From Naegleria gruberi (lineage: Eukaryota), in the NCBI GenBank assembly GCA_000004985.1, contig GG738854.1: a stretch of 64,000 bases of DNA. One strand, given 5' to 3'. Position numbers and translations under genes: made by a program. Shown here piece after piece: positions 21 through 54,418 of this stretch (position 1 is the stretch's first letter; each line of letters starts with the position of its first letter). Below the pieces are notes generated by a model. It made no database searches. It saw nothing but the letters and a program-made list of their open reading frames with translations, and was not told where the DNA came from.

Positions 21-3000
21 TTGACCAATAGTACTTTCTGTACTTTTAAAGAGTCACCATGCACTTCCATTCAACAAGCCATCGATCAGGTACTGGAAAT
101 GTACTATGATAAGAAAATAATTGAACAGCCAAGTGCTCGTTTCATTCTAATGCCCAATCTCTCTGCAGGCCATCATCCATCGAAAAGACTCATCTATGGA
201 AAGGATCAGTGTGATAACTCTTTCAATAGATGGTTTTACTACTTATTACTTGAATCACATTCGAATGAAGAAATAATTGAATTTCAATGTGAGGGAGAAA
301 GTCTTGTCAACCCTCAAATGTTTTTTGGATTGTACTTGATGAGACTCAAGTTGAGGAATACCTTATTGCGTATTGATGAACGCATTGTTGTCTTGTACAT
401 GTATGGAGTACATGCCACAAATTCTAGAATTGGATTTACTAGAAAGGGAGATGATGTCATTATGAAATATTCACTCCTTTACAGTTATTTTGGAGATGGG
501 GATATTCAATTGGAGGCAAGTGATATTAATATTAATGGATCTATTGTTGAGCGAGTTACAATGTACTCGACCAGTAAGACCAGTATGAACATTACCCACT
601 CAAGGATCACACAATTCAAGTTTACCTCATCATCTGGTGGGGAATTTTCTAATTTTGATATTTTAATTTCCTTTTCGAAACTTAATAATACTGAATGGTA
701 TATTAGTAACTTTGGAAATGTGCAGTTGGATCAAATTGATATTTTCAATGATTTTCAAATCTCAATATTTTACACTAGCTCTATTTCTATTAGTCAACTA
801 TACACGAGAGGGAACAATGTACGATTTTATGCAATCTTTGTGGGGATTAGTGGTGGTATCCAAATTGAAAAATCATACTTTAATTCACTCACAAATTTTG
901 GAAATTCGAAAAACATATTTGACATTACTGCTACACCTATTTTAAATATCGAAAACTCTGTATTTTCCAACAGTAATCCATTATTTGGCGTGGCTGTTTG
1001 CGGTGAATTGAGGGGATACAATTTACAATTTATTGGAAACAAGGGTCCTTGCATATATTCTGATCTTGATAAAGGATTGGGTGTGAGCAGTGTTTCTATT
1101 TCACAATCAAAATTCATCAACAATTCATGTAGTGATTGTTCTGGAGGAGCTCTATTCTTGAGAGGTGTTGGATTTTTGGGTTTAGATTCCTCTTTTGTGG
1201 GAAATACTGCTACCAATGGAGGAGCATGTTACATTTCGGCCAGCTCAATAGGATTGAGCCAAGCCCAATTCATGGACAATAGAGCAACATTGAAAGGAGG
1301 AGCTTTTTATGTTGAATTTGTGGATAGTGGTTCCATGAATGGGGCATTTAACTTTGAATGTATCAATAACGTAGCTCAATACTCTGGAGGTTGTTACTAT
1401 TCTACTAACAGGACCTTAACATTTGAATTAATTGATCCAATTTTGGAAAGAAACCGTGCAAACTCCTATGGTGAAACATTTGGATACCCATTTTTTGATT
1501 TGAACTATCTCATTACCGTAACATATGGAAACGGAACAATATATACAGGTGTTTCTAACTCTTTTCCAGAACTTTCATTATATGCAGGTCAAATTATTTC
1601 AACCATTGAAATTACATTGTGGAACAATCGAACAGATCGAGTATCCTATTTGGAGTTGCCAATGGAGATTGAAGTGAACACGTCTCTTGTATTGCTCAAT
1701 TATGAACAAAAGAAAAACCCCTTCAATTCGACAATAACAATTGAGAATATCTATTTCACTCAAATGGCTGTGCTTCCTTCTCTCCAAAATTTCTTCACTT
1801 TACAGATGAAGATTGAGAATTTCAATCTCACAGCAATGGTCACTGTGCTGGATTGCCCTCACGGCTTATCTCTAGTCCAAAGTGTTGCACAAATTGGTAC
1901 TCTTACCTGTATTTTGAATCCAACAATACCTTATCAAATCATTATACCAGTCGTTTCAGTTGTTACACTGATTATTGTTGGAATTATTGCATTTTGTACT
2001 TTTTTCATTATTAGAATGACTCTTGTCATCGTAAGAAAACTTAAATTACTCAATAGAAAACTGGAAGCTGAAAAGAAAATGGAATCCAAACTATTACAAA
2101 AGCGAGTTGCCCTCATGGATGATGACAATGATGAGATGAATGAAAAATCATCACTTTTAATCAACTCAAATGGTGAAAGCAGCAATAACTACCATTCCCT
2201 GATGGATCATTCTTCCTCATGGATCATATCTATTGATGACATTGAGATTTTGAAAAAGATTGCTGAAGGAGCAAGTGGTTGCATTTATCTTTGTGATTGG
2301 AAGGGCACTAAGGTAGCTCTTAAAACACTTAAAAATCAAATGGAAGTCGATAATGATATCCTTTTTGAACGGGAAGCAGCATTGCTCTCAACACTTAGAC
2401 ATCCCAATATTGTTCAATTTTTTGGTATCATATTTTGTTCTAGGAAATACATAGCTGTAGAATATTTGGAAAAGGGAAGTTTGGACAAGTTGATTTATGA
2501 TTCAAAAACTGGACAGGCCAAGTTGAATTTTACAAAAAAAATTGAGATTCTTTATGGGGTTGCAAAAGGAATGGCCTATCTACACACCATGAAACCAAAA
2601 CCAATCATACACAGAGACTTGAAACCTGGAAATATTTTAATAGACATCAACTTGACACCAAAGATTTGTGATTTTGGATTGAGTAGAGTTTGGAACAATT
2701 CATTTTCCAACCAATCAGCCCCAACCATGAATGTTGGAACTTTTTTCTACCTTGCCAATGTATGTTATTTCTATTTTATCACATTCTGATTATTAACATT
2801 TTCGTTTAGGAAATGATATCTGGAGATCAATATAACCACAAGGTAGATGTTTACAGTTTTGGAATAATAATGTGGGAATTGTTTTTTGAGGAGAGCCCTT
2901 ATATTAATCAACATTCTCCCAAGCTCTTTAAATATGGAGAGGCGAGAGATGATGATATTTCACACTTGGGTTTCAATGCATTAGGAAAGGTATTGAGCGG

Positions 3001-15963: not shown

Positions 15964-17831
15964 TTAAACATTGACAGATTTCAATTCAATATCAGTAGAA
16001 ACTTTCTTTGGAGCTTGTTCTTCTTCCTCGCTTTCGTACTCCAAACTATCTTCAGGAACTTCCCAGAATGCTTCATCATTAAAGACACTCTTTTCAGGGA
16101 ACAACCATCTAATAACTAAGCCAGCAACAACACCTCCAATAATGGCAATACCAATAGTGATTGCCAAAGTAGCAAATTGATAACCCCATTGATGAGTTCC
16201 ATTAGCAAACATCTTATCATAAACAGCTCCATAAGATGATCTTTGAGCAGCAGCAACACCAGTAGCAATAATGGCACCAACACCACCAATAAAACCAGGA
16301 ACACAATGCAAGTTGAAAACTCCACAAGTGTCATGTAATTTAAGATACTTTCTCATGTTTGGAGTGAAGAATCTGAATCCGAAAACACTAATAAAACCAG
16401 AAACAACACCAACAGTCAATGCACCTCCAGGAAGAATTACAAAATCAGCAACAGCTCCAATAGCAACACCACCTGCCAATGTACCATTTTGAATATCTTC
16501 CATAGCAAATAAACCTCCTCTGACTAATCTACTGCAGAAGAAAGAGGCAACAGCTGATCCCATCAATGACAAGATTGTGTTAATAAAGGCACGATATTGA
16601 GTTGTACCCTCAGGACTATAAAAATGTGTTAAACCAATTTACAACAAATACAAAACATACCTTAAAGCAGCATTGAAGGAAGGCCAACAAAGGAACAAGA
16701 AGATTGTACCAATTAATGAGAAAAAGTCAGAAGTATAACGTGATGATTGCAAAGGATGTCCTTTCAGAGCTTTCTTATTCCATAATACGAAAGAACAGAG
16801 TAATCCGAAAACAGCTCCGAACAAGTGAATAAACATAGATCCACCAATATCTGATGCTTTCAAAACCCAAGTTCCGATATAATAATTCAAAGCATAGAAG
16901 AAAGTATGAATTAAACCAGCAATAGTCAATTGCAATGGAGTAACCTTTCCGATAATAACACCAAACTATTAAATTATTCACAATCAATTTTAAATGTCAA
17001 CTAAGAATACTTACAGAAACAAGGAATGAAGCAGCAGCAAAATGTCCTTCAACTAAATCTTGCAATTCAAAGTGAACCATCCATCTTGGATTAGAAACAC
17101 CAATTTGATCTCCAGTAATTGGGAAACCCTTATTAACACCAGCTCTCCAAAAAGCTTGATTCAAAATACCCCATTGGAAAATAAATGCTGCATTAGTTGG
17201 TGATGAATAATTGGAAATTCTCAAGTTTACTTACCTGAAATGAAAAAGTTTAGTCCAAAAGCACTGTAACCGTACTTTCTCAAGAAAGTCATCAAGAATC
17301 CGAAACCAACGAACACCATAATACCAACGTCAAGCATTGGTTTATAATAGTGAACAACATCAGCGTGTGCTTCTTCATTCAAATGGGCAAGAGTTGTCTC
17401 TGTTGAATTGGTAACAGAATGTTCATAATCAAAGAATACCCAGAATAAAACAAGGAAAATTACTTGAAAAACACCAACAACTAAACAATCACACATATTA
17501 ATATCATCATTAATAAATTATTATTATCATGACACCACCAATAGTGTTATTATAACAATAAAAGACAGAATAACATACCAACTAGAAAGGTAATATTCTC
17601 AGCACCCCAATGGGAATGATGTGCTGCTCCATGTCCTCCTGATGGAGTGGAGTGATGATTCTTTTGTTCTTGTTGTTGTTGTTCAATTTGTTCTTGTTGT
17701 CCCAAGCCATTATCAATAGAAGTAGAGGCTCTGACAACATTCTCACTAGCCTCCAAGTCAAGACTACTCGAATTGACAACAGGATTGTCGTGATTAATCA
17801 TGTGTGTTTGTGATTCATGGTGATGAAGCAT
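15964..17831 (-). CDS. Rhesus (Rh50)-type ammonium transporter. Exons are 15964..16615, 16661..16965, 17015..17187 and 17235..17480. There is a possible additional 5' exon 17579..17831 encoding a His/Gln-rich extension. Alternatively, translation starts at ATG 17496.
   Basis: The Rh family signature is PMLDVGIMVFVGFGFLMTFLRKYGYSAFGLNFFISG, with TM1 VVGVFQVIFLVLFWVFFDYEH. Downstream exons read FQWGILNQAFW, HLFGAVFGLLCSFVLW and LHCVPGFIGGVGAIIATG, with an acidic C-tail. The short introns are 16616..16660, 16966..17014 and 17188..17234, all minus-strand GTAAGT/GTATGT..AG, each required to bypass a stop. The optional intron 17481..17578 (gtatgtt..tgtttag) keeps frame with the upstream ORF MLHHHESQ..HWGAENITFLV. 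Confidence 0.8.
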
Positions 17832-22089: not shown

Positions 22090-25000
22090 ATGCTTCAACA
22101 AGCCAAGAAGAGAAAGGCTGAGGATTACACATCTGCCGCGGGGGATGAAACTCTGCCACGTAGATCATCTCATGATCCGCAATATATCATCGATAGAGAA
22201 GAATTAGAGAAAGTTAGAATTGATGCACTCTATAAAATTGATGAAGAACGTAGAAAGAATCAACAAAAGAGAAGGGAACTTGAAGTATTGGAAAAGGCAG
22301 GAAAAGATAATAGTAGCAGTAGTAATAGTGCGTATCATAATAACAAGGTGAAGGAAATTTTGCAATCGGGTGAAAATATTATTAAATTGATGGTTGGAGG
22401 GAAAATGTTCATCACTTCAATGTCTACTCTCAATAAGAGAGATAACATGATCAAGACCATGTTGAATTCTGATTTTAAGGTTGACACTGATGAGAATGGA
22501 TGTATTTTGTTGAATGATAGTAATCCAGAGTATTTTCCAATAATTTTAGAACACATTCGTACAGGTATGTTTTAGAAATAGTTCTTTTTGATCTTTTTTA
22601 GGAAGTACAAATTATGTTGGTCTTTGGGAAAATTCTAATGAAGAAAATATTGAAAAGTTAAAGGAATTATTGGTGGAATCTGATTACTTTGGTACAGGCA
22701 AGTTGAGTGCCAAAATTGCAAATCTAATTAAAGAATTCAATGCTGACCAAAATAATAACAAACCTAATGAATCAAATAATGAAATGGTCGACGAAGTAGT
22801 AAAACCTAAACCAGTTTCAAAGAAAACTAATCTCGATTCTGACCAAGATGCAAGTGATGAAAAATGGTTGGAAAAGTTCAAACAACTTACTCTACAGGAA
22901 AAGACAGTTATGGATGAATTTATGAAAAAGACTGAGGATGAGATAGAAAAGGAAAGAGAAGAGCTTAGACAAAGGGAAGCCTCTCTCAAAAAAGAACCAA
23001 TTACTTTCAATGTTAGAGGTGTGAAATTTGTCTGTGGTATTGAAAAGTTACTTGTGCACACAGAAAGCATCTTTCCACAACTTGCTCTTGCAAGCTCCAA
23101 TAATGAAATTTTCCTTGACAGAGATAGTGAAATATTCTCTGTTGTCTTTGAATTTTTGGAGAGTGCCACGTTTAACTCTGTCCCAAAAGACATATCAAAG
23201 AGAAAACTTGTTTACAAGGAAGCCAGAGAGTTTAAACTTAAGGGACTTTTGGAATTTTTAGATCCTCTTCGATATCCTATTGAGGATGTTGGTGCTGAAA
23301 ATCTTAAAATCAAGAAGGACGAAGACTTTTTGAGAAATCTTTATGTCTCAGAAAGAGAAAATCCAATTTTAGCTGATCCTTACATTCATTTGGTTAATGT
23401 ATTCGGTAGCGAACACGCCACAAGAACATTGTTCGATCAATGTGATCCCCCTCAAACTGTTCCTATGATCTTTGACTTTGAAAATCCAATTGAGGTAAGT
23501 ATTTTGTATTTTTCATAATTGTAATTTTTGTATTTTTCCTTTTAGGCTTCTGAGCTTATCAATGAGTTTTCAAATTTATTGCTTCCTCCAGTCCCAAAAC
23601 TCTGCTCTACAAGAGCAGAATTTTTCACGCAATTTAATGCCTTAACATGTGGCATCTTTAAGGACATGGATTGGTCAAATGTGTTTGTTGCTGGTATGTA
23701 TCACTTCAATTCTATAATACTTAATATTTAAATTAGGTGGTGGTATTTTGGCTTGTATGTTAAAAGCTGATCTTGAAAGAGAGGACTTGATAGAATCCAA
23801 TAGGAACAGGAGGTTTAGAAGCAGATTCTCCACACCTATTAGCATAGAAAAGCCAAAAAAAAAGATATTATATGAAGAAGATGATGGTTCTGAATCTGAT
23901 CAAGATCAAGTAGATACAGATGGTTATTTTACATCTTCATCTTCTGAAGAAAGTGAGCCAGTTTCCCATTACTCATTCTTCGGCAATGTAACACAAGAAA
24001 AAGAAAAAGATTTAGACAAACAACTTTTCGAATATTTCCAAAAATCATATTGGAAAAATAGTGATATTGATTTATTCCTCTATGGATTAAATGAAAAGGA
24101 AGCTGAAAACAAAATAGTCTACCTTTATAATTTATTTAAAAAGAATTTAGCTGACATTCCAAATTACGCAAGAAAAACAGGAGAAGAGAGCCATGAAGAT
24201 ATCTTGTTGCTTAGAACTGAAAATGCTATTACATTTAAATTTATTAGCTCTGTAAGAACAGTGCAAGTGATTTTGAGAATTTACAAAGCTCCAGTAAGTT
24301 TTAATAATTTTGAGAATTTACAAATCTTTTGGTAAACAAAAGGCTGAAGTGTTAATGGGTTTTGATGTGAATTGCTGTTGTGTTGGCTTTGATGGCTCTC
24401 AAGTCTATGCGTTACCAAGAGCCATTCAAGCAATCAAAACAAGATGTAATATTGTGGATCCAGATCGTCAATCAACTACGTAAGTATCATTATAATTGTA
24501 CTATGTAACATTGTCAATTTAGATACGAACTAAGACTCGCAAAATATGCACTAAGAGGTTTTAGAATAGGTGTGGCTGGGTTTGATGAAAAACGTATCCA
24601 GAACGATCTTTTAATTACGGATTGCTTTTATAAACCAAATAGAAGAAGATATGTTCAACCAAAAACGGTGGCAAAGCTTAGCAATGTGACTGGTCTTGCA
24701 AAAATTCTCCTTCTCAGACACTCTTATAAGCATTCAAAATTTAGAGCTGGCCTTAAAAGTATTGGAGGAGGAAAGGATGTTGACTCTGCTGAAAAAATGA
24801 TCTCCAAGTCCAAATACCATGACTATGTGCAAGTCAATGTTTCACGTCGTTACTTCTTTGGTTCAAATGAACAACAGTTTGTTACAGCTAGTCAATATTT
24901 CGAACATATTAACAGCAGGACAGAATATCTTATTGAAGAAGCCAAAAAGAAATTATTCTTTGAATATTCGTTAAATAACATTAATGAAATAATTTCAACA

Positions 25001-25447
25001 ACACAACCAAAAAGTGACCTGCCACTACACTTGGAATGGATAACCTATGACCCAGGTCGTCAATATGTTGTAGGAAGTTTCCATCCACACAAACTGAACT
25101 TTTTCAAAGATGCATATACTCATGCTGAAACTGAGTGCAAAGCACAAGGAAAGAAAAAGATGAGTAAATATATTTGGCATATATCAGGAAGAGGATATAG
25201 AACAACTCTGAATGCAGAAGAATCCAAAAAAGTCGAAACTGCTTACAGACTCTATAATAAGGGAGGTCAGGAAGAATATGTGTTAAATAATGGTAAAATC
25301 ATTAATTTCGATACAATGCAGGTACCTTCAGGCAGTGGATGGCGTCGTTATAGAGTATTCAGAACTTCTGATTCTTCAATTTACGTCAAGTCGACTTCAG
25401 ACACAGTCACAGATATACACGAAGTTTTGGATGTAGAAGAAAAATAA
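22090..25447 (+). CDS. Double BTB/POZ (KCTD/T1-type) domain protein with a conserved-looking C-terminal domain. The 6 exons are 22090..22564, 22602..23494, 23546..23693, 23737..24293, 24343..24479 and 24523..25447.
   Basis: The start is ATG at 22090. BTB 1 is IIKLMVGGKMFITSMSTLNKRDNMI..NPEYFPIILEHIRTG, split by intron 22565..22601. BTB 2 is ITFNVRGVKFVCGIEKLLVHTESIF..FLDRDSEIFSVVFEFLESATF. The C-terminal region contains DIDLFLYGL and GFDVNCCCVGFDGSQVYALPRAI. The introns 23495..23545, 23694..23736, 24294..24342 and 24480..24522 are all GT..AG and each is needed to bypass a stop. The last acceptor could instead be at 24564 (an 85-nt intron), which is also in frame. Confidence 0.7.
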
Positions 25448-25640
25448 AAAACTCGAGTATCAAATTGAAAGTGAATCCGAATTGAAGAAGTGGTGTATTT
25501 TGTAAATATTAAGATGTGCCATCTTGTGAAGGTTTGTGATGGTATGGATTAATTTCCAAAGAAGATGAAGAACCTGGACCACTCCCAGCACTACTCAAGG
25601 TCACAAACTCCTTCTTTTTATTGATTGTATTAAGATGAAT

Positions 25641-25760
25641 GGCTACGGCCATATCACGATGAATACACCTCATCCCGTCCGATTTGAGAAGTTAAGCATC
25701 GTCTAGCCATATCAGTACTGAGGTTGGAGACAACTTGGGAACCTGTGGTGCTGTAGTCTT
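25641..25760 (+). rRNA. 5S ribosomal RNA gene, about 119 nt, followed by a T4 Pol III terminator.
   Basis: The sequence is GGCTACGGCCATATCACGATGAATACACCTCATCCCGTCCGATTTGAGAAGTTAAGCATCGTCTAGCCATATCAGTACTGAGGTTGGAGACAACTTGGGAACCTGTGGTGCTGTAGTC. It matches the universal 5S architecture: the 5' GGCUACGGCCAUA pairs with the 3' GCUGUAGUC (helix I); the loop C/box C-like segment is CCGTCCGAT..GAAGTTAAGC; the run GUACU..GGUUGGAGACAAC..GGGAAC..GGUGCUGUA is conserved. The TTTT follows at 25759-25762. Confidence 0.8.
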
Positions 25761-26608
25761 TTAGATTTAAGAGGAAGTTGATGATAAATATTTCTAATTT
25801 CTTTTGTTGACTTGATTGAGTATTGGAAGAGATGTGGTTTGAGAAAAAAAATGAGAGTGTTGGGATTCAATCCTTTTTAAGAAGTGTTCATAGTTCCAAT
25901 ATTTTTGTTTGTTGGTTTAGTGACCGGGGATCAATTTGTTTGTAAAAGTGTACCCAAGGTATGAACGAGAGTTTTGCCTGTGATTGAAAAACCACCAGTG
26001 AATGATGACTGTAACATTACATTACATTCATATTGAAAAAATTCCTTAATTCACCTTAGACCAATGTCCTTTCTGAATAAGTGGAAATGATTTCAAGTCT
26101 GTTTTAAAAAAAAGAATTAACCATAAGGCAGTGAACATTACCTGTGTTTAAACAATCTGAAGGTTAGAGAGATTGTGAACACTTACTAAATTTGAGCGTG
26201 TAGTGTAATTCTAACATCACTATCAGCTCATTTATCTGAAGTGTTGGTGAAACCCATGCCTTTTTACCTCTGTAAAAATTTTAATTTGCACTTCACTTCC
26301 TAATATTCTTAAGAGCAATGTTTGCCATATGAAGAGGTTGGATCATACGTAGAAAGTGTTTTTAAAGTTCACATAATGTTTTCATGGTTCATTTTACAAT
26401 TCTTCTATCTATTTTTAAGCATGATGACGAAATTTTCATCATCATTACAAAAAGTATGATGTCAACATCTCCGAAATTAAAATGCTGATAATGAAGACAC
26501 ATTTTCATTCAAATAATGCACATTGAATGATATTCTTGGAAAAAAAAGACAATTTGCAAACAAGCAATTCAACTAACAACTTATAACAATTCTAACAACT
26601 CAAACAAA

Positions 26609-27157
26609 ATGGACTTTTTCAAAAAGATTGGTCAATTCTTCTCTGGATGGCTCAGAGGTTTATTCGAAAATAAGGAAGCCAAGATTCTATTCCTTGGTTT
26701 GGATGCAGCTGGTAAAACTTCAGCTCTATATAAGATTCAATTAGATGAAAATGTCAGCACCATTCCAACCATTGGTTTCAATGCTGAAGTGTTACAATAT
26801 AAGAAGGTAACTTTTAGAGTGTTTGATATTGGTGGTCAGGATAAGATTAGAAAGTTATGGAGACACTATTATCAATCGACGAATGCTATCATTTTCATTG
26901 TCGATTCCAATGATAATGAGAGATTTAAAGAAGCTGCCGAAACCTTACGGGAAGTTATGCAGGATGATCTGTTGAAAGATGCCAAGTTATTGGTGTGGGC
27001 TAATAAGCAAGATTTGCCAAGAGCTGCCAATGTTAAAGATATGGTCAATACTTTGAAATTACACGAGATTAAGCAAGAATGGTTTATACAACCATGTAGT
27101 GCCCTGTCTGGCACTGGATTATTCGAAGGTTTGGATTGGTTATCCAGTAAATTATAA
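26609..27157 (+). CDS. ARF-like (Arl/Arf family) small GTPase, 182 aa, single exon.
   Basis: The start is ATG at 26609. G1 is [11 protein letters not shown]3 is DIGGQ and G4 is NKQD. An N-terminal amphipathic helix ([14 protein letters not shown]) is typical of Arf/Arl proteins. Confidence 0.9.
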
Positions 27158-30585: not shown

Positions 30586-32688
30586 TTACTTTACATTTAG
30601 AAAATAGTCAATTCGTTTTTGTTTCTTATTTGGTTTTTCGTAGGGGTTGATTCTATACCACTTTTCGTTTACAACAATTTCGTTCCTCTCCATAATATGT
30701 GAAATAAATTTTTGTCCTGCTCCTGATACTTCACTCGGCATTTGTCCTTCATTATTGCAAATACTCAATAAATTTGGATAGCATTCCAATATTTCTTCTA
30801 CAACCTCATAATCCAAATCAAATTTATCACTTGCAAACTGATGAAGAAGTGTTGAACCATGTTCATCTTGATAGGCAAGCTCTTCTTCTTCCATGCAATC
30901 TATTCCAAAATCATCCCCTGTGATATGAGAAAAAAGTTGATAAGTATTCAAAAAGGACAAATAGGGTCTAAAGAAATAACTTCTCAAGTTATTGTTATCC
31001 TTAAAAATTATCCAAGCCTTATCCAATATTATGATACAATAATCTTCAGCATTGTTTTTGTTGAAGGAGAGAGAGTTTCTAAGTACATCAATAGCTCTAT
31101 ATTTTTCCATTTTAGTAATTGGGTCGAAATTAAAATCCAAACATGGTTTAAAATCAAGAGTATATTTTTGAAAAGTACTTCGAAGATAATTAGTGTAAGG
31201 TTGTAAGAATGTTGGAGCTTCAAAAGCAGTATAAAAATAATGCAATTCAGGTATATAACATTCAAATAAGGAATGTCCATGTTTGAAAATAGAGTCCAAC
31301 ATTTTTTTCATATTTGAAAGATCTAAACGGTAAAACGAATGTTCACTGGTCATTTGTGAGAACATTAGTGGATGATATTCAGTCAATTCAAACAAATTCA
31401 CTTCAATAACGGGTTTGCCCTCTTCCTCATAGCTAATTCTCTTACAAAAATCTCTTTTGTGAAGAGTAATTTGGTAGCTCTCTGAATTGTTGAAATACTC
31501 AACAAATCTAAGAGTAATTCTTGCATCAACAAATAAACAGTAGATATCCAATTTTTGTTCGAATAATCCTCTTAAGTCTACTAAATCTTGTATCATTACT
31601 GTTGGTCTATAAATTTTCAATTCTTTTCTATTGTCACAAAAATCAATTCTATTCATCAATGGAATTCGTACTTCTTTCAATCCAAAAGCTGAGAAATGGT
31701 TGAGAGAATATACCTCGCTTATTTCATTCAAAATTGGAGCACATCGAATGTATCTAAGTTTGTTATAATTAGTAAGGCAAAGATCTTTTCTATTAATTTT
31801 AGGATGCATAATGTACAATGAATCAGTTAAGGGATTTTTCATAAATTCTCTTTTTGATAATTCTAAACTAGCTCTAACATATTTTCTTTCTCCAAAATCA
31901 TCATCATAAATATATAGAGTATCCAATTGTAAAATTCGTTTTTTCATCATTAAAGCATATTCTCTATTAATCAATCTCATCTTGACACAAGTCATAAATT
32001 CATTATCCACTCTTTTCATACAGGCTGGATTTAATTTCTTTTCCCATAGTCTAGTATTACAATCATCATCACAATGTTTTTCATAAAATTCATCTTGGCT
32101 AATGCCCATTTGCTCACAAGTTATTTTCACATTTCTTTCCATCATTTTGATTCTTTCTGGTTTTGAATAAGTTGGAATGAATGTGATTATTTCATATTTG
32201 ATTTCAATTGGTAAATCTACCAACATTTCACTCTTTGTAATCTCAAGTTGATCATATTTCTGATTTGAAAGTGTTTTTATATCCATAGTTATCCAATGGG
32301 TGGTTACATTATTCAACATTCTATTAATCCTCTCTAATCCTAAACAATCACTTCGAATATTAGTTGACTGCCAAGCTCGAATCTGATTCTTACTGTTAAT
32401 ATCAACAAAATCAATTTGACTAATCTCTAAAACACTTCCTTTTGCACATTGATCAAATAAAAATATCTGAATAGGACTATAATATCTAATTTCATCATTA
32501 GAATATCTATCATAATTTTTTAAATTATAGGAAGGATGATTTGATAATGGACGACTAACAAGACATTCACTAGAATAAAGATGTCTCTCATCTAATACTA
32601 ATACTTCAAATTTATGTGCACTCGGGAAGGAATTTGCTGCATAGTATAACTCTGCCACCAACGATTCTTTGCTTTGGTGTCTTGTCAT
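30586..32688 (-). CDS. Hypothetical 700-aa protein, single exon, no recognisable domain.
   Basis: This is a long uninterrupted ORF beginning with ATG at 32688. Its composition is non-repetitive. The AT-rich genome context makes a chance 2.1-kb ORF very unlikely. Confidence 0.6.
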   Translation of the reverse strand: MTRHQSKESLVAELYYAANSFPSAHKFEVLVLDERHLYSSECLVSRPLSNHPSYNLKNYDRYSNDEIRYYSPIQIFLFDQCAKGSVLEISQIDFVDINSKNQIRAWQSTNIRSDCLGLERINRMLNNVTTHWITMDIKTLSNQKYDQLEITKSEMLVDLPIEIKYEIITFIPTYSKPERIKMMERNVKITCEQMGISQDEFYEKHCDDDCNTRLWEKKLNPACMKRVDNEFMTCVKMRLINREYALMMKKRILQLDTLYIYDDDFGERKYVRASLELSKREFMKNPLTDSLYIMHPKINRKDLCLTNYNKLRYIRCAPILNEISEVYSLNHFSAFGLKEVRIPLMNRIDFCDNRKELKIYRPTVMIQDLVDLRGLFEQKLDIYCLFVDARITLRFVEYFNNSESYQITLHKRDFCKRISYEEEGKPVIEVNLFELTEYHPLMFSQMTSEHSFYRLDLSNMKKMLDSIFKHGHSLFECYIPELHYFYTAFEAPTFLQPYTNYLRSTFQKYTLDFKPCLDFNFDPITKMEKYRAIDVLRNSLSFNKNNAEDYCIIILDKAWIIFKDNNNLRSYFFRPYLSFLNTYQLFSHITGDDFGIDCMEEEELAYQDEHGSTLLHQFASDKFDLDYEVVEEILECYPNLLSICNNEGQMPSEVSGAGQKFISHIMERNEIVVNEKWYRINPYEKPNKKQKRIDYFLNVK

Positions 32689-33909: not shown

Positions 33910-35921
33910 ATGAGCTCGTCTAATACTACTATTGCTTCGTTGGAAGCAGCGATTGCACAAACACACACAGACATGGATACCTTGTGGGTGTTGGTATGTA
34001 CCATGATGGTCTTCCTTATGCAGACTGGTTTTTCTTTTTTGGAAGCCGGGTCTGTTAGAAGCACCTCTGTGGTTAATATTTTAACAAAGGTTAGTAAATA
34101 ACAATGAAATAATGGCATACTAACCAATTCAGAATTTATTAGGAACTTGTATGGTCACTATTGCTTGGTGGATTCTAGGATATGGTTTGGCGTAAGTAAT
34201 AATAATTATTTGATGAAGAAATTGTAATCCACTTGCTGATGATTGATGCCATCCACTATAACAGTTTTGGTGACGATACCACATCAGGAACAAGAAACGG
34301 TTTTATAGGCAATGCGTAAGTTTTTAAAAGTCCTCATCAAAATTCTGAAATAATTACTCCTATTTGATATAATATTTTCATTAATATTAATAATATGTGA
34401 TTTCGTTACTGCTTGGTAAGTGTTTTTCAAACCACAAGGCTTGTGATATTAATTATTATTTAGGAGTTCATATAAATCATGGCATATTTGGGTCTTTGAA
34501 TGGGCCTTCGTTGCTGATACTACAACAATTTTATCAGGTGCTATTTCTGAAAGAACCACTACTCATGGTTATTTGATTTATGCTGCCATCTTTGCTGGTT
34601 GGATTTATCCAGTTGTTGCTCACTGGTTCTGGTCTACTTCTGGTTGGTTGTCTCCATTAAAGAAGGATATTGAAGGACCTGGATCATTGGGAGTTATTGA
34701 TTTTGCTGGTTGTGCTGTTGTTCACCTTTTGGGAGGTGTTGCCTCTCTCTGTGGTGCTGTTATTATGGGTCCAAGAAAGGGAAGATGGGTTAAGAAGAAT
34801 GAAAATTACTTCAAGCCTCACAATATTCCTTTCCAATTCTTGGGTACCTTGTTATTGTTCTTGGGTTGGTTTGGTTTCAATCCGTAAGTATTTCCCTTAA
34901 TTACCTTAATTCATTTAACCAATTAATGATAATAATATTAATTTTATAATAATAATTCATTCACAGAGGTTCTACTACTGCCATTTCTAATGGAATGTCT
35001 ATTGTTGCTGCTAAGGCTACAGTAAATACTGTTTTAGCTGCTGCATCTGCTGGTCTTACTGGTGCTTTCATTAGATTGTGTATTCCAAAATTCCTAGTAT
35101 GGGATGCTGGTAATCTTCAAAATTGTGTTTTGGCTGGTCTCGTTGCTGTTACAGCTGGTTGTGCTACTGTTGAACCTTGGGGAGCTGTTTGTATTGGTAT
35201 TATTGCTGCTCCTATTTATATTGGACTTTCATTCCTTTTGAGAAAATTAAAGATTGATGATCCTTTGGATGCTGTTCCAGTCCATGGTGGTTGTGGTTTG
35301 TGGGGTTTAATTGCTGCTGGTATCTTCTCATCACCACGTGGTGTTTCTGCTGCTTATAATGTTGTTTCAACTGGTTCATTGTTCTGGGGTAACGGTGAAC
35401 AATTTGGTATGCAATTCTTGGGTGCTGTTGTTGTTATTGCTTGGGGTGCTGCTTGGTGTATTCCATTGTTCATTATTATGAGATTCATTCCAAGAGGTTT
35501 TGGTTTCAGAATTTCTGAAAAACAAGAAAAGGCTGGAATAGATGTTGCTTTGCATGATGTTGATGGTTATGCTAATATTAATCAAGAAGATTTGGATGAA
35601 AGTTTCAAGAATTGGGTTGAATTTGTTGAATTCCAAAAGGAAAAGAAAAAGCAAAAGATTGCTGAAGAATTGAAGGGTGCTACACCAAAGAAGTCTGAAT
35701 CAACCCAAGATAAGAATGATGTTGAATTGAAGGAAAATAAGCCAATTGAAGCACAAACTGTTGCTACTGCCACTCCAGTTGAAACCACCAATAACGCTAC
35801 TACCCAAGAAACTCCTGTTGCTACTGAAGATAAGGATGTCGCTACCGAAAAGGATGTTGAATTGAAAGAAAATATCACTGCTGAAAACATTAATGTTGAA
35901 ACACCACAAACTAATGTTTAA
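33910..35921 (+). CDS. Amt/MEP-family ammonium transporter. The 5 exons are 33910..34089, 34132..34190, 34264..34314, 34464..34883 and 34967..35921.
   Basis: Exon 1 reads MSSSN..LWVLVCTMMVFLMQTGFSFLEAGSVRSTSVVNILTK. Exon 2 reads NLLGTCMVTIAWWILGYGL. Exon 3 reads AFGDDTTSGTRNGFIGNA. Exon 4 contains AISERTTTHGYLIYAAIFAGWIYPVVAHWFWS and DFAGCAVVHLLGG and ends FLGWFGFNP. Exon 5 reads GSTTAISNGMS..VHGGCGLWGLIAAGIF, followed by a repetitive Thr/Glu-rich tail. The introns are 34090..34131, 34191..34263, 34315..34463 and 34884..34966, all GT..AG and in phase. Confidence 0.9.
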
Positions 35922-38009: not shown

Positions 38010-41000
38010 TTATGCAACATAATGTAATATTGAATTATTTTGTTCATCTCTTTTCAAAAAATCTCTTTCAAGTAAAGATTCAATTCTCTTCTTAATTTGT
38101 TTAACATCAGGAGTAAATATTGGAATTAATTGTGAACTAACTTCATTAAATAATGATTGAATATTCATTGTCTTTCTTGTTTTCATAATTCTAACAACAC
38201 ATGCATCTAAAATATGAACTCTATCTGTACTAACACTTGTTTGTGTACCTTGTGTATCTTTTTGTGTTATTCTTGGTAATGGAATTTTAAGTTTAAATGA
38301 TCGAGATGTAAAATTTTCATTCAATGAAAGTGTCATTTCCTTCTGATTAAATATTAAAATTGGAAATTTTGTTGATGATAATGAAATTATTGATTGTTTC
38401 AAATCAATATCTGAATTATTATTCAAATCAACTGTAGTATTACTTCCAAATGAACTTGATCTTTGATTCATTCCATTATTGGTACTATTATTATTATTGC
38501 TACTATTACTACTATTATTCTGATTAATTGTACCATCAAAATTTAAACCAGTTAAATCTTCAATTTGTTTAACAGATAATTGTAATTGATCATTAAAAAG
38601 TAATAAAATTGAAGCTTGTAAAGTAGAAAGTTCAAATAAATGATTACCATTAATATAATGAGCATGAATTTGAGCCATACTCTTTGAATAAACCCATTTT
38701 AAAACTCTTTTACCATTTCTAGAATCATAAAATTGTTTAAATAAATGTTGTGATTCTAAAAATTCCTTTGGAAGTAACATGTGTTCTTTTGCTTTTAAAG
38801 GCCACATTCCCATAGTTAAAACTGTAACATTAACATCATATGAAAGTTGTAATTGATTTGTTGTAATATAATTTTGAAATTCTAATTTCATATCATTGGC
38901 CATTGTTTTATCTGTTAACATTTTCTCTAATTTATAAGTATCAGCAACACCTCTATAATGATATTTTAATTTAGAAATCATCATTCTTTCTTCTAATTCT
39001 TGATAATCAGTTACTAATAATCTTATAGCAAATAATTTACGATGTTCTTCAATAAACATATCTCTATCTGAAAAGAATTGAATAAAATCAACAATACAAT
39101 CTAATTTCTTTTCATCACTCTTCTTTCTTAATACATCATCTGTATAATAGGCAAATAATTGTACAATTCTAATTTCAAATTGACCAAGTGTTATATTCTT
39201 ATTAACAAATTGTTTAAATCCTTCTGACATGGCCTTATGAAATATTACATTTCTTGAAAATGATCCATTTGTTATATTTTTCATCTTTTGATGAAGTTCT
39301 AATAAATCTTGAACATAGGAATCAATTAAAAATCTAACTACTTTACTATATACTTCATTAGATATTATATGAATATTATTATTAGATGTATTATTAGATG
39401 TATTATTATTATTTGATGTATTAGATGTACTACCATTATTATTACCATTATTATTATTATTATTTAAATTATTATCATTAGATTTAATCATTTCAGATGA
39501 AGCATTTTCATACTTGACAAATAATTCATTTCCAACAAAAATTAAATATTGTTTAAATAAATCAGCAATTGGATCTAAACCACCTTCTAATCTATTCATT
39601 AAACGATATAATCTTTTCAAATCATCAAATTTTTCATCTCTAATTAAAATTTTAACACCACTTCCACTCATTTCTAATAAACGTTTTTGCATATTTTTCA
39701 ATAATTCCAAATCACATAATTTCATTAACTTGTTTTGTGAAAAACTAGTTGGAAATATTGCTTGAATTCTAGTTTGTTCTTGTTGAATACATTCTTCAGC
39801 AAATAATAAATATTCTGTTAAATTATACTTTTCAATCCATTCATTAGCAATTTTATGATAAAATTCACTTGTTTCCTTCTCTGCATATTTTTCAAATTCA
39901 TCAACATAGACCTCACTTGTTGAATGTTGTTGTTGTTGTTGTTGTGTAGATGATGATGATAATTGATTTGATGTTGAATCAATAATCATATTATCATTAT
40001 TACTGCTTGTACCACCACTGCTTGTACCAATATTATTACTTTGTGTAGTATTAGTATTAGTAGTATTATTATTATTATTATTAGCATGATGAAGACCACC
40101 TGTATTTAAAGTAATATTTGGATCATCCATTTCAGAAAATAATTGTAAAGTTTGTTTTAATAATTGTCTTTGTGAAATGTAATAAGAATTATCGGAATTA
40201 TAAAATTTACGATCTTGTGTAATTTTATCAAGTAAAATTTGTCTTAATTGAACTTTACAATGATCAAATATACTTGTTTTAAATAAATAATAAGCTTCAT
40301 ATTTTAAAGTTCTTTTAGTATTTGAAGCAACATAAAATTGATCTAAATATTTAAATATATAGGAACAAAATTTTACAAAAATGTCTCTAAAATTAATCCA
40401 AATAAAAACAATTTCATTTAATAAATCTTCTCCATATTTATCTTTTAATTTTGGTAATATTGTTGTTTGTAAATATTTTTTAATATAAATTGAATATAAA
40501 TTATATAATTGTTCTTCATAATAAACTGAATCAGGTAAAATACATAAATTATATATAGTTGTAAATAATAATACATGTTCATCATTCTCCCATGGTTTTA
40601 ATTCATTCAAATTTTGACTTTCTCTTTTACCATTTACAAATGTTTCTAATTTTTTTAAACTTTTATAAATTTCATACCAAGTTTCACGTAATTTTTGACT
40701 TCTTGTTTGATCATTTGTATTATTAGTTGTAGTATTATTAGTATTATTACCATTATTAATAGTGGATGGAGTTGTTGAACTTGTTCCACCACTACTACTA
40801 CTAGTAGCAGTGATAGTATTATTATTATTATTAGAATTATTATTAGAATTATGATTAATTTGATGAGAATTGGTTGGAGTATGATGAAGATGACTATTTG
40901 GAGTTGAAGAATTTGGTTGAATGGGTGGTTTCTTTTGAGGAGTAGAAGGATTTGAATTAATTGATTGATTTCCTAGATTAGTTGGTGGTTGTTGTAAAAA

Positions 41001-41990
41001 GAAAGGAGGTAAATTTGATGAAGAATTTGATCTTAATCTATTTTGTAAAGTATTTTGTAAATTTGGATTTGTAATAGGAATAGGTGGTATTGGTAAATTA
41101 TTAGAAGAAGAATTTGATCTCAATCTTTGATTTGGAATTAAATTACTAGGTGTTGGAATAAATAAATTAGGAGTTATAGTTGGATTAGGATAAGGAATAT
41201 TTCCACTATTAGAAGTATTTGAATTTGATCGATTTCTTTGAGCTGCAGCTGCTGCTTGTAAAAAAGGTGGAGTTGTAAATAAGAAATTATTCATTGATAG
41301 AGGTGGTAAATTTGAAATATTTGGAATTCCATTAATTGTTGGAATAAGTGGAAGATTTGGATGATTCAAGTTTGGTTGTGGATTTAAAGTTGGTTGACTA
41401 GTTGTTGGTAATTGAGTTGAATTATTATTAGGTATTATTGAGGTAGAAGTTATTGGATTGGTCATGTGAAGAAGATTTGGAATTGTTGGATTAATAGTAT
41501 TAATTGGAATATTTGTTGAAGTAGTACCATTAGCATTGATATGATTTGGAATTTGACTTGTTGATTGTTGTTGTTGTTGAGGATTAATTTTAGGCTTTTT
41601 TAATGCTTGTTCAAAATTTTGTTGCTGAAGTCTGATAGAGGAGTTATTTATAGATTGTGAGGGTTGTGCTTGATTATTAATTAATGATGAAGTAATCCCA
41701 GCATTTGATTGAATTCGGTTATGATGACTATTAGATGGTATCGTACTATTAGTATTGTTGTTATTATTGATTGGTATCATCATTGGATTACTGTTGACAG
41801 TTGCTTGATGAGAAGGTTGATGGAAGGCATGTTGTTGGGTCAAAATTTGAGTTGATGTTGAATTTATAGTATTATTACTAGTATTATTTACTGTTCCTAT
41901 AGGAGGTTCATCGGTTTGATGTGATGAATTGGTTGACGATGATGATGTTTGTTGCTGATCCTTTAGATGATCTTCGTAGGTTCTCTTCAT
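38010..41990 (-). CDS. Cullin-family protein, 1326 aa, with a 600-700-aa low-complexity (Asn/Gln/Ser/Thr/Pro-rich) N-terminal extension. Single exon.
   Basis: ATG is at 41990. The C-terminal cullin-homology and neddylation region is VVRIMKTRKTMNIQSLFNEVSSQL..IKKRIESLLERDFLKRDEQNNSILHYVA. Cullin-repeat-like segments occur in the middle (KLEKMLTDKTMANDMKLEFQNY). Confidence 0.8.
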   Translation of the reverse strand: MKRTYEDHLKDQQQTSSSSTNSSHQTDEPPIGTVNNTSNNTINSTSTQILTQQHAFHQPSHQATVNSNPMMIPINNNNNTNSTIPSNSHHNRIQSNAGITSSLINNQAQPSQSINNSSIRLQQQNFEQALKKPKINPQQQQQSTSQIPNHINANGTTSTNIPINTINPTIPNLLHMTNPITSTSIIPNNNSTQLPTTSQPTLNPQPNLNHPNLPLIPTINGIPNISNLPPLSMNNFLFTTPPFLQAAAAAQRNRSNSNTSNSGNIPYPNPTITPNLFIPTPSNLIPNQRLRSNSSSNNLPIPPIPITNPNLQNTLQNRLRSNSSSNLPPFFLQQPPTNLGNQSINSNPSTPQKKPPIQPNSSTPNSHLHHTPTNSHQINHNSNNNSNNNNNTITATSSSSGGTSSTTPSTINNGNNTNNTTTNNTNDQTRSQKLRETWYEIYKSLKKLETFVNGKRESQNLNELKPWENDEHVLLFTTIYNLCILPDSVYYEEQLYNLYSIYIKKYLQTTILPKLKDKYGEDLLNEIVFIWINFRDIFVKFCSYIFKYLDQFYVASNTKRTLKYEAYYLFKTSIFDHCKVQLRQILLDKITQDRKFYNSDNSYYISQRQLLKQTLQLFSEMDDPNITLNTGGLHHANNNNNNTTNTNTTQSNNIGTSSGGTSSNNDNMIIDSTSNQLSSSSTQQQQQQHSTSEVYVDEFEKYAEKETSEFYHKIANEWIEKYNLTEYLLFAEECIQQEQTRIQAIFPTSFSQNKLMKLCDLELLKNMQKRLLEMSGSGVKILIRDEKFDDLKRLYRLMNRLEGGLDPIADLFKQYLIFVGNELFVKYENASSEMIKSNDNNLNNNNNNGNNNGSTSNTSNNNNTSNNTSNNNIHIISNEVYSKVVRFLIDSYVQDLLELHQKMKNITNGSFSRNVIFHKAMSEGFKQFVNKNITLGQFEIRIVQLFAYYTDDVLRKKSDEKKLDCIVDFIQFFSDRDMFIEEHRKLFAIRLLVTDYQELEERMMISKLKYHYRGVADTYKLEKMLTDKTMANDMKLEFQNYITTNQLQLSYDVNVTVLTMGMWPLKAKEHMLLPKEFLESQHLFKQFYDSRNGKRVLKWVYSKSMAQIHAHYINGNHLFELSTLQASILLLFNDQLQLSVKQIEDLTGLNFDGTINQNNSSNSSNNNNSTNNGMNQRSSSFGSNTTVDLNNNSDIDLKQSIISLSSTKFPILIFNQKEMTLSLNENFTSRSFKLKIPLPRITQKDTQGTQTSVSTDRVHILDACVVRIMKTRKTMNIQSLFNEVSSQLIPIFTPDVKQIKKRIESLLERDFLKRDEQNNSILHYVA

Positions 41991-42411
41991 TTTTAATCAA
42001 GAAATCCAAGAGGGTTTAGCTGAGGTTTTTTTTGTTCAAAATATTTCTACACCAGCAAAAGAAGGCGGATTTGAGAGGTGTGGACTGATGATATGATATA
42101 AAAAGAGCATGGCACTTCTCAAAAGAATCTACACTATGAAAAGACATTTAAAAAAGAAACAGTGAGGAGGTTATTAGCTGACTAACACAAGATGATGATG
42201 TGGTAACATGGTATTAATTACCCATGTTGAACAATGAAGAGACAAGAGATGAAGAAGTGGCTGGTGTGTGAAAAATATCTCACTGTTCACCAAATTACTT
42301 GAAAATAAATTATTTTAATAGAGAGAAAGTTATGTGTGGTTAGTACATTCAAATCCATTGAATGTAATGAGTGTATTTCATCTTCTTTGGAAGTTGTGTG
42401 TATTTGTACAA

Positions 42412-44883
42412 TTAAGCAACGTAATGGTAAATACAATTTGCACTACCTGCTTGTGAATTATTATCTCTTTCTAAATATTCTCTGTCAATTAAACTTTCAA
42501 TTCTCTTCTTTACATCTTGACCTTGAATTGAAAAACGAACTTGAGATAAAACTTCAGTTAATAATTGTTGATGTGTTAATTGTTTTCTTGTTTTCATAAT
42601 TCTAACAATTGCTGCATCAATAACATAGGAACGATCCAATAAAACTTTTTCAGTTGTTTCTTCTCTTTCTTTCTTTGTTTCTTTCAATTGGAATGAATCA
42701 ATTTTAATCTTTGTTTTTGATTGTGAATAATCTTCATTAACAAAGAAAATATCATTCTCTTCAACTTGAGTTCCTTTAGTTTCTTTCTTAAGAATTTTTT
42801 CCTTATGGAATGCTAATGATTGTAAAGTTAAAATTAATTGTTTTTCATCTTGAATTCCTGTTGATTGTTTAAGTTCTCGTACAGAAATCTTTTCTTTAGA
42901 ATTGAATTGTAATAATACAACTGCTTGATAGAATGATATTATCAATTCCTTTTTACCACATGGGAATAAGGCTTTCATTGAACATTGTCCCAAGTTTGAA
43001 ACCCATTTCAAAATACGTCCAGAATATTTGTGTGTATAAAAATCTCTAAATGAATCTTGTAATAATGAAAGTTCCATTGGTAAATTTAAAGTATCAGGTG
43101 TATAATTTGGCCAATAACTCAATGTTAATACTTTAACACCGAGGGAGGATGCAATTTGAAGTGCTCTATCCTTTTCTTCACCTACTTCATTGATAAATTT
43201 CTTAAATTCTGCACTAGTTTCATATCCTTTCATTAATTCCGCTGAAATATCAATATCTTTAAACATTCCTTCTAATTTGTTTGAGAATTGTGTACCACAT
43301 TCTGCTCTCAATTTAGAAATCATTGTCTTTTCTGCATCATATGATGAAGTCTTTCCAAATAATAATCTTTTACCCAAATCCTTCTTATAAAATGCTTCAA
43401 ATATATCTTTACCATTAATATATTTGAAAATTGTTAGAGCATTATCCATACATCTTTCTAATTCATCATCTGTTAAACCCTTACTATTCTTTAATTTTCC
43501 ATCAATATATTTTGCAATAAGTTCACTTGGTTTGTTAGGAACAATATTTAAGAAATATTCAAAGGCTTTTCTTATAGCATGTTTAAATTCTTCATTCTTA
43601 TGGAAAGATTGTTCATGTAATTGATCAATTTTACTCTTAAATTGAAGAGTATCTTGAACCATATTTTTATCATTTTGATCATCATCAACAATTCTTTTAC
43701 CTCTAATCTTTAAATAGACTGTAAATGCTTCTTTAATTGCATCAAGTTCATTGACTAATTTAAATAATCCATACATTCTATTAAGATCCATAATACGATT
43801 AAGATCCATTAATTCTTCAAATCCTTTATCTAAAATTGTTTTAACATGTTTCTTTATCAATTCATTTTCTACTATTTGTATAAGAGGTTTCTTTGTTAAT
43901 TTACTTAAATAATTTGTAACTCTATCAACTTCTTGTCTTAATCTAGATTCAACATATTGTAAATATTCTGGTACATTTAATTTATCAATATTATTTAAAC
44001 CATCATTAGAATAAAATGATCTAGTTTCTTCTAAAAATGATTTTTCAAATTCATCTTCATATAAATGTAAAGATGTTAACATTCTAATTAAACGTTGAAC
44101 AACTGATTTATCAATACTTTCTCCACTTCTTTCATGTTTAATTAAAATTAAAATCCCAGATATTATTTTTTTAAGTAAATGTTCATTAATCTTTAAATTT
44201 TGTTTAAATATTTGTAAATTCATATCCCAAATAGATTTATCTGGTATTGTCATTACATAAGACCTATCTAAATATAAGAAAATAGATCTTATCATATTAA
44301 TTTGATCAGTGAATTCTTCCCAACTTTTAACTACAATATTTAAAAATGTTGTGTGATCTGTTGTTGCTTTATGTCCTAAATCATAAATTACATTTTCAAT
44401 ATGTTTAGAACAAAGTAATTTCAATTTGGAATAGGTACTTTCTGATTTTTTATGTCTTGCCAAATCGGAACAAAGTTGATAAAGTTCTTCTTGTCCAGTA
44501 CAAATTTTCTCCTTTTTTTGAATGGCAACAACAGCGTTATTTAACTTGTTCCATGTTTCTTCTTCAAAGTTAGATACTGTCGGTTTTAAAGACAGAGGTT
44601 TGATTTTAAGACAAGTTATCTTTTTCTTTGTTGGTGTAACTGAAGGTGATGGATTTGTTAAACCTCCTCCTGTTGATGCTGTTGTATTGTTTTTAGTAAA
44701 TCCACTTGTTGATGGTATTGTTGTAGTCATTTTAGGCTTTGGAATTTCGACAACTTCTTCTTCGTCCTCAATTATAATGGTATGATGATAGGCTTTGGTT
44801 TTTTTAGTTTGATCGGATTGTAAGTCAAGATTAGCTTGAGGTTGTTTTCTTTTCTTTGATGATGATATGGCGAAGGTAGACAT
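42412..44883 (-). CDS. Canonical cullin (Cul1/Cul3-like), about 823 aa, single exon. It lies tandem to the preceding cullin.
   Basis: The ATG at 44883 is preceded by an in-frame TTG. Cullin motifs include LEGMFKDIDISAELMKGY, IDAAIVRIMKTRKQLTHQQLLTEVLSQVRF and KKRIESLIDREYLERD..IYHYVA. Confidence 0.85.
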   Translation of the reverse strand: MSTFAISSSKKRKQPQANLDLQSDQTKKTKAYHHTIIIEDEEEVVEIPKPKMTTTIPSTSGFTKNNTTASTGGGLTNPSPSVTPTKKKITCLKIKPLSLKPTVSNFEEETWNKLNNAVVAIQKKEKICTGQEELYQLCSDLARHKKSESTYSKLKLLCSKHIENVIYDLGHKATTDHTTFLNIVVKSWEEFTDQINMIRSIFLYLDRSYVMTIPDKSIWDMNLQIFKQNLKINEHLLKKIISGILILIKHERSGESIDKSVVQRLIRMLTSLHLYEDEFEKSFLEETRSFYSNDGLNNIDKLNVPEYLQYVESRLRQEVDRVTNYLSKLTKKPLIQIVENELIKKHVKTILDKGFEELMDLNRIMDLNRMYGLFKLVNELDAIKEAFTVYLKIRGKRIVDDDQNDKNMVQDTLQFKSKIDQLHEQSFHKNEEFKHAIRKAFEYFLNIVPNKPSELIAKYIDGKLKNSKGLTDDELERCMDNALTIFKYINGKDIFEAFYKKDLGKRLLFGKTSSYDAEKTMISKLRAECGTQFSNKLEGMFKDIDISAELMKGYETSAEFKKFINEVGEEKDRALQIASSLGVKVLTLSYWPNYTPDTLNLPMELSLLQDSFRDFYTHKYSGRILKWVSNLGQCSMKALFPCGKKELIISFYQAVVLLQFNSKEKISVRELKQSTGIQDEKQLILTLQSLAFHKEKILKKETKGTQVEENDIFFVNEDYSQSKTKIKIDSFQLKETKKEREETTEKVLLDRSYVIDAAIVRIMKTRKQLTHQQLLTEVLSQVRFSIQGQDVKKRIESLIDREYLERDNNSQAGSANCIYHYVA

Positions 44884-45300
44884 CAAAAACTATTACTATT
44901 AGATTTTCTAGAATGGACTAAATTGGTTTAACAACATCAAAATCCTAACTAGTAAAACTATTGAAAAATAACCCTAATAATAATAACAATAATATAATAC
45001 TACTATGGTAGGGTACAGAGAATGTGTTTCCTGTTGTTGTTGATGTATTTTTTTAAATAAGTTTTTCTTCGGAAGTAATTTTAGAGTGCATGTTATTCCG
45101 CCCTCACTTTGGATTTTAAAGCCTTCAATTCAATTGAGGATCTTTGAATAATATTATTATAAAATTGATAATTTAAAATTGATAAAGAACTCTTTTTAAT
45201 TGAAATATAACATTATTAATTGATAAAGAACTCTAAAATTGAAATATTATAATAAACATTAAAATAACATATATTTATAAACAAATTAAAACAATAATAT

Positions 45301-52700: not shown

Positions 52701-54193
52701 ATACAAATACAAATCAACAACAACAACTTGGTAAAGAAGGATTATTATTATTAAATAGATTGGAAACATTAATTTCTCAAGTTGAACAAATTCAAACCTT
52801 TGAAGATAAGGATGAACATAAATTCTGTGAAGCATGTATTGATGTGATGAGATCATTTAAAATTAATCACAATTATGATTTATATTATCAATATGTTGAT
52901 AAATTATCAGCCGTACATGAAAGATATGGTAATTATATTGAAGCAGCCTTAGTATTATATAAACATGCTAAGAGATTACAATGGAATGATGAAAGAAAAT
53001 TACCCTATCATTCAGATGAATATCCAGAACAATCTGAAGCTGATAGAAAGATTAAACTCTATGAAAAGATGATTGATTTATTTGATAAAGGTAAAGATTG
53101 GGAGAGAGCAATTGAACTTTCAAGACAATTAAGAAATTACTATTTACACAATTACAAATATGCCAAAACACAAAATTTGTTAAAGAGAGAGGGTGAATTT
53201 TATAATTTAATCATGACAAAGAGAAGATTCTTTGCCTCCTATTATTATGTTAATTTTATGGGAAGAGGATTTTTAAAGATGGGTCTACAGGGACCATACA
53301 TTTATAAATCGGTGGAAGGTGAAAATTTTATGGATTTTTTAAATGGCTTAAAAGATAAATATCAAGCACAATTATTTCAAAAGACACCAACCGATCCAGA
53401 ACAATACAGAGAACAAGAAGGTAGATTCTTTGTTGCCTATCACGTTGATCAAAGTTCAGAATTTGAATGGGAAAATATATTCCAACATCGTGATAAGAGA
53501 ATTTCACCTAAAATTCTATGTTATAGAAAATTACATAATATTAATCATTTTAAATCTGAATCACGTTATAGAGAATCAAAAGAAAAAACCAATAATGAAT
53601 ATAAGGATATGCATAGAGAAATTACATTCTTTATCACTCCAAAGAAATTCCCAACCATTTGTAGACGTCAGAGAATTTTATGTGGTGATTCATTGAAAAT
53701 CTATCAAGATAAATTATCATTGAATGAGAAATTGAAATATAGAGACTATTCACAATGTATTGATTTATCAAATATTAGTTATATTGCCAATGATAAATTA
53801 TTACATTTATGTCCATTAGAGAATGCTACTAAAGATATTGAAGATAAAGTTAATGAATTGGAAGAATTGGTTATTAATCACCATTTAGATCAACAACCAG
53901 ATACTAATGCATTATCAATGTCATTGAATGGTACTATTGATGCAGCTGTTAATGGTGGTCAGGAGAAGTATATTTCTGCATTCTTCACAGAACAATATGT
54001 TTCAACACATCCAGAACATGATTTATTATTGAAGAGATTTAAAATTGCTCTACAAAATCAAATTTTCATTTTAGAAGAAGGTTTGAGACAGAGAAGATTA
54101 TTTGTTGAAGGTAAAGCTGTTGCATTGAATGAATATTTAGAAACACGTTTACAAGAAATGAAAAAGAAATTAGAAGAATTATTATTTAAATAA
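46763..54193 (+). CDS. DOCK-family Rho/Rac GEF, about 2400 aa: N-terminal SH3, DHR-1 (C2-like) and C-terminal DHR-2. The exons are 46763..46799 and 47007..54193.
   Basis: Mini-exon 1 (ATG 46763, MSQWVSVNKYGI) is joined by a 207-nt intron (gtatgt..atctag) to VVDSFNSKQYQQHQHLLDLNVGDLVYIKAERDGWCKGSVF, which together form an SH3 domain. The DHR-1-like segment is DLYFVFRLYRVGPV..KRPFGVAIADI. The DHR-2-like segment is YIEAALVLYKHAKRLQW..KIKLYEKMIDLFDKGKDWERAIEL. The protein has many Gly-rich, Asn-rich and Thr-rich low-complexity inserts. Confidence 0.85.
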
Positions 54194-54418
54194 ATATATA
54201 AAAAATTACAATTGTATTATATATTAATATTTAATTTTTAAATTCACTATTTCATTCATATTAATAATATTACCAGTTCCAAGATTAGATCTTCATGTAA
54301 TGCATGTGCTCGAATTGTTCAAACTGTGAAACTTCATATACTATGACATCTCCCATTTCTAGATGTTATCAGTTCTAAAAACCATGATTGCATTTTCTAA
54401 CGAATTCGTTCACACTAT

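Follow-up and report, generated by a model that had tools for sequence, protein, structure and literature searches.

Naegleria gruberi is reported to carry 279 putative nuclear 5S rRNA genes, which lie apart from the rDNA units (Feng et al. 2012, PLoS One 7:e36878, PMC3369914). These genes are described as having an internal control region (ICR), a TATA box upstream, and T runs as terminators (PMC3369914). TFIIIA was not identified in N. gruberi (PMC3369914), which leaves in doubt how this control region is recognized. The Naegleria rDNA plasmid, a circular, multicopy, extrachromosomal element, bears single copies of the 18S, 5.8S, and 28S genes only, and these three genes are found nowhere else in Naegleria (PMC12482156); functional 5S rRNA is therefore expected to come from genes on the chromosomes.

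The coordinates in Table S1 of PMC3369914, which we parsed, place the 279 entries on 117 scaffolds, with a median nearest-neighbor distance of 22.8 kb and with a neighbor within 2 kb for only 18 of the 279 copies. Table 1 of that paper scores the N. gruberi 5S genes as "tandem", whereas its own Table S1 coordinates are mostly scattered; the arrangement is dispersed, with some loose clusters. A second literature search on Naegleria 5S genes, beyond PMC3369914, returned only unrelated papers on 5S rDNA.

We analyzed a single 5S gene within a 64,000-bp stretch of N. gruberi DNA (contig GG738854.1 of assembly GCA_000004985.1), hereafter called the window. A lone chromosomal 5S gene is an ordinary and already known feature of N. 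gruberi, and 151 of the 279 entries in Table S1 (PMC3369914) would each be the sole copy in a window of this geometry.

The 5S rRNA Gene

25641..25759, plus strand: 5S rRNA gene, 119 nt, full length (Rfam RF00001, 5S_rRNA)

A cmscan search against Rfam aligned this interval, untruncated, to positions 1-120 of the RF00001 model with a score of 98.0 bits (E 4e-20), the gathering score of the model being 38. At the gathering threshold this was the sole Rfam match in the window; a scan of the first 60 kb at E<=1 produced one further match, which lies elsewhere and is sub-threshold noise. No tRNA genes were found in the window by ARAGORN. The original prediction had described a solitary 119-nt 5S gene followed by TTTT and situated between protein-coding genes, and these results bear it out. 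Its interval of 25641-25760 holds for the start, and the gene is on the plus strand; the end, which Rfam places at 25759, was off by one base.

When the Rfam consensus structure was mapped onto the sequence, 33 of the 34 consensus pairs were standard, the sole exception being C15.U64 at the foot of helix II. Helix I is formed by GGCUACGGC and GCUGUAGUC, with nine pairs, two of them G.U; the loop C region reads CCGUCCGAUUUGAGAAGUUAAGCAUCG, and the run GUACUGAGGUUGGAGACAACUUGGGAAC is present in the gene. All of these strings had been singled out in the earlier reading and were found again. The minimum-free-energy fold recovers helix I and both arms, and from the consensus mapping helices I-V of the three-way junction are predicted to be able to form. 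The interval 25641-25759 is a genuine, intact-looking 5S rRNA gene.

Genomic Context and Host

24572..25447, plus strand: last ORF or exon of a protein-coding gene, no Pfam domain (upstream neighbor)
26609..27157, plus strand: Arf/Sar family small GTPase, 182 aa (Pfam Arf, E 1.3e-64; downstream neighbor)
30586-32688, minus strand: 700-aa protein, exactly matching N. gruberi NEG-M NAEGRDRAFT_47111

The 5S gene begins 193 bp after the stop codon of the upstream ORF and ends 850 bp before the Arf GTPase coding sequence, and all ORFs within these two flanks are of 54 aa or fewer. The GTPase is identical to N. gruberi NEG-M XP_002680223.1, which is on the same 665,159-bp NEG-M scaffold as NAEGRDRAFT_47111. 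The G+C content of the window, about 30-35%, agrees with the 33-37% of Naegleria genomes (PMC12482156). N. gruberi belongs to the Heterolobosea (Discoba) and is unrelated to the Amoebozoa. The dictyostelid frame in which the gene had been viewed at the outset is thus overturned by the two exact protein matches to NEG-M, and the reason then given for interest in a chromosomal copy falls with it, having rested on this wrong taxonomic assumption.

The 27 largest ORFs of the window include genes for TPR, BTB, Arf, Zn2Cys6, kinase, cullin, DOCK, ammonium transporter, ZIP, and queuosine salvage proteins, and are ordinary cellular genes. Two adjacent minus-strand genes of the cullin family (Cullin plus Cullin_Nedd8; 38010-41990 and 42412-44886) are probably tandem paralogs, the first of which encodes a protein with a long N-terminal extension. 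Within this long minus-strand cullin ORF, at 40-42 kb (40001-42000), GC skew rises to +0.40. Matches to the ammonium transporter family (PF00909), covering its C-terminal half, occur in two further ORFs (15964-16572, minus strand, and 34995-35921, plus strand), which are probably exons of two paralogous ammonium transporter genes. G+C falls to 17-22% at 54-58 kb (54001-58000). Runs of N marking assembly gaps occupy 58251-58300 (50 bases) and 59948-64000 (4,053 bases), so that the last 4 kb of the window are without sequence.

The window copy can be related to the published set by coordinate arithmetic. Entry R33668 of Table S1 (scaffold_10:377644-377760) corresponds to window 25644-25760 on the assumption that the first base of the window is scaffold position 352,001 (352,001 = 11 x 32,000 + 1). 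None of the other 278 entries agrees with a round offset, here 352,000, and the chance expectation for such a coincidence is about 0.14. In the same table scaffold_14 reaches 722 kb, which, if scaffolds are strictly sorted by size, conflicts with a scaffold_10 of 665 kb. The window copy is probably R33668. The similarity value of R33668 in Table S1 is 0.758, which differs from the majority value of 0.75, so that the window copy, if it is R33668, is a minor sequence variant.

Candidate Transcription Signals

25615..25623, plus strand: A/T-rich TATA-like element at -26..-18, TTTTTATTG, read from sequence; candidate upstream promoter element
25690..25704, plus strand: box A of the internal control region at +50..+64, AGTTAAGCATCGTCT; exact consensus match at the canonical position
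25720..25737, plus strand: box C of the internal control region at +80..+97, GAGGTTGGAGACAACTTG; 2 mismatches, at the canonical position
25759..25762, plus strand: TTTT run, presumed RNA polymerase III terminator, read from sequence

The consensus patterns used were those quoted in PMC3369914, N(G/C)(C/T)(C/T)AANCNNNNNNN for box A and NNG(G/A)TGGGNG(T/A)CCN(C/T)NNG for box C. The box A pattern is weak by itself, with 111 matches across the window. Box C departs from its consensus at two of the 11 specified positions, and with up to two mismatches allowed this pattern has only three matches in the whole window, both strands included. A loose consensus for the intermediate element (IE) had no match at +67..72.

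Upstream of the gene, the A/T-rich element has a counterpart, AAATTATAG, at an equal distance from the heterolobosean copy L002 described below, and we infer that it may act as an upstream promoter element. At the 3' end, the first T of the TTTT run is the last base of the Rfam match, and the run is conserved in both related copies (L001 and L002).

Related Copies in Other Heteroloboseans

The protein encoded by the upstream ORF has one database relative only, 100% identical, on a 3,283-bp ENA metagenome contig (L001; ERZ929261, project PRJEB11402) from a near-identical Naegleria. L001 is 99.4% identical to window 22561-25453 and runs on through 5S-derived sequence into about 95 bp of the downstream sequence of the window, homology ending about 95 bp past the 5S gene (window ~25855). 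Its orthologous 5S copy (L001 2962-3056) carries a 24-nt internal deletion and seven substitutions, scores 34 bits, under the gathering score of 38, and is a decayed pseudogene. Decay of the ortholog in a contig 99.4% identical to the window shows that single 5S copies are dispensable.

Two further differences between L001 and the window were observed. A small tandem duplication of TTGATTGAGTATT is present in L001 just before the downstream homology ends. In addition, L001 lacks, around 2877-2900, a 106-bp segment of the window (25454-25559) that follows the stop codon of the upstream ORF and precedes the 5S gene, with breakpoints in the imperfect direct repeats AAGAAAAATAAAAAACT and AAGAAGATGAAGAACCT; this suggests a deletion by slippage or microhomology, or else an insertion. 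The segment has no second copy in the window and no resemblance to the 5S gene. A 10-nt repeat, TATTAAGATG, at 25507 and 25628 had raised the possibility of a partial duplication of the 5S 5' end, which was rejected by a shuffle test: in local alignment of the 106-bp segment with the 5S region, 39 of 500 shuffles reached the observed score.

Searching JGI metagenomes for a 23-nt 5S pattern yielded the second copy and nothing else; 5S-pattern scans of genome contigs and of viral contigs gave no match.

L002 539-657, minus strand: intact 5S gene on a JGI metagenome contig (106 bits; 34 of 34 pairs standard)

Four of its 119 positions (24, 25, 64, and 70) differ from the window copy, and it has C-G where the window copy has C15.U64. 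The gene and an alpha/beta-hydrolase gene are divergently oriented, the 5S gene being 166 bp upstream of the hydrolase, whose closest named relatives are proteins of Willaertia magna (52%) and N. lovaniensis (58%). Since the hydrolase is only 52-58% identical to its named relatives, L002 comes from another, uncultured heterolobosean, and four differences in 119 positions at this level of neighbor-protein identity show strong constraint on the 5S sequence. Polarized against L002, the seven substitutions that separate the two orthologs divide into six derived in L001, which carries the 24-nt deletion besides, and one derived in the window copy. The small number of derived changes in the window copy compared with L001 would fit continued constraint or homogenization.

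The orthologous hydrolase loci on L003-L006 (N. lovaniensis, W. magna, and two further contigs) have neither a 5S gene nor a trace of one in the intergenic region, so the position of the 5S gene at this one locus is not conserved between heterolobosean species. Together, the two loci, which are all that this comparison covers, suggest birth-and-death turnover of individual 5S copies. As a tentative extension, which we regard as possible but doubtful, turnover in the dispersed 5S family of Naegleria may be rapid at individual loci, with the family sequence itself remaining almost unchanged. If so, an active mechanism, either ectopic gene conversion or repeated re-insertion, would be maintaining some 279 scattered copies without tandem arrays, and would be doing so in an organism in which TFIIIA was not found.

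Interpretation of the Locus

The gene is very probably one of the approximately 279 dispersed 5S genes of N. gruberi, transcribed by RNA polymerase III (Pol III) and contributing its RNA to the large ribosomal subunit. What the analysis establishes is that the gene belongs to the 5S family and is structurally intact, where its motifs lie, and which host and genomic setting it has; that it is transcribed, that the motifs act as promoter elements, and that the product is built into the ribosome are predicted from sequence. Pol III initiation would be directed by an internal type 1 promoter made up of box A at +50..64 and box C at +80..97, probably assisted by the A/T-rich TATA-like element near -25, and transcription would stop at the TTTT run where the gene ends. 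The resulting 119-nt RNA would adopt the canonical three-way-junction 5S fold and enter the large subunit, and scattered chromosomal copies of this kind would be the normal source of 5S rRNA for the cell.

The alternative that survives best, although we consider it rather improbable, is a silent or mildly defective family member on its way to becoming a pseudogene, which would look full length while yielding little or no 5S rRNA. Such a status would accord with the C15.U64 mismatch in helix II, with a score 8 bits under that of the L002 copy (98 versus 106), and with the probable standing of this gene as a minority variant in Table S1 of PMC3369914; the L001 ortholog, which is clearly dead, also shows that the locus is dispensable. 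Against this reading, the window copy retains both ICR boxes, its T run, and the upstream A/T-rich element intact, just one of its pairs is disturbed, and its derived changes are far fewer than those of L001.

The original prediction had also entertained a retroposed copy, and a landing pad for retroelements that target tRNA or 5S genes; that the locus is either of these, the pad bearing remnants of Pol III-targeting elements, is very unlikely. The dispersal of the copies, the loss of similarity between the window and L002 a few bases beyond the gene ends, as if the transcript were the mobile unit, and the lack of synteny of the 5S gene between heterolobosean species at the one locus tested would each be compatible with retroposition. 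Yet the gene is followed by TTTTAGATTTAAG and not by an A-rich tail, and no target-site duplication was found; direct repeats bracketing the gene are absent, as had been noted at the outset. No reverse transcriptase, integrase, or transposase domain was found by Pfam among the 27 largest ORFs, the flanks of 193 bp and 850 bp hold only the short ORFs mentioned above and are not repeated at any other place in the window, and the TRE elements are dictyostelid (PMC5911963), which the host is not.

That the gene is instead a fragment of an extrachromosomal rDNA element, such as the D. discoideum palindrome with which the locus was first contrasted, misplaced in a chromosomal scaffold is scarcely credible: we found no support for it, the N-run gaps of the scaffold lying more than 32 kb off, the whole window gave no 18S, 5.8S, or 28S match, the rDNA plasmids of Naegleria have no 5S gene (PMC12482156), and misassembly is ruled out by the reproduction of both 5S flanks on the independent contig L001, where the 5S-derived sequence is likewise preceded by this upstream gene and followed by about 95 bp of the downstream sequence of the window.

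Comparison with Known Systems

In Naegleria an "unexpected chromosomal 5S" is the normal arrangement, and the finding carries little weight beyond annotation. What is mildly new is the pair formed by the intact window copy and its decayed ortholog on L001, along with the lack of 5S synteny among relatives; this pair and the second locus could seed a study of how homogeneity is kept in a dispersed, non-tandem 5S family.

In both Dictyostelium discoideum and Naegleria, which belong to different eukaryotic supergroups, the large rRNA genes reside on an extrachromosomal element present in many copies (PMC5391098; PMC12482156). The D. discoideum element also carries the 5S gene, which serves as a target for TRE5-A, a retroelement found upstream of it, whereas the Naegleria element is a circle of ~13-15 kb without a 5S gene, the 5S genes being chromosomal and dispersed. 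With the type 1 Pol III 5S genes of Xenopus and yeast, the window copy shares the canonical positions of boxes A and C, a T-run terminator, and the five-helix three-way junction. The N. gruberi copies differ from these in lying outside long head-to-tail arrays, in belonging to an organism where TFIIIA was not identified (PMC3369914), and in the probable involvement of an upstream TATA-like element. The closest counterpart is the dispersed N. gruberi set itself (PMC3369914), from which nothing substantive separates the window copy: the organism is the same, the length falls in the class of 117-120 nt, and the ICR, the TATA box, the T-run terminator, and the lack of linkage to an rDNA unit are held in common.
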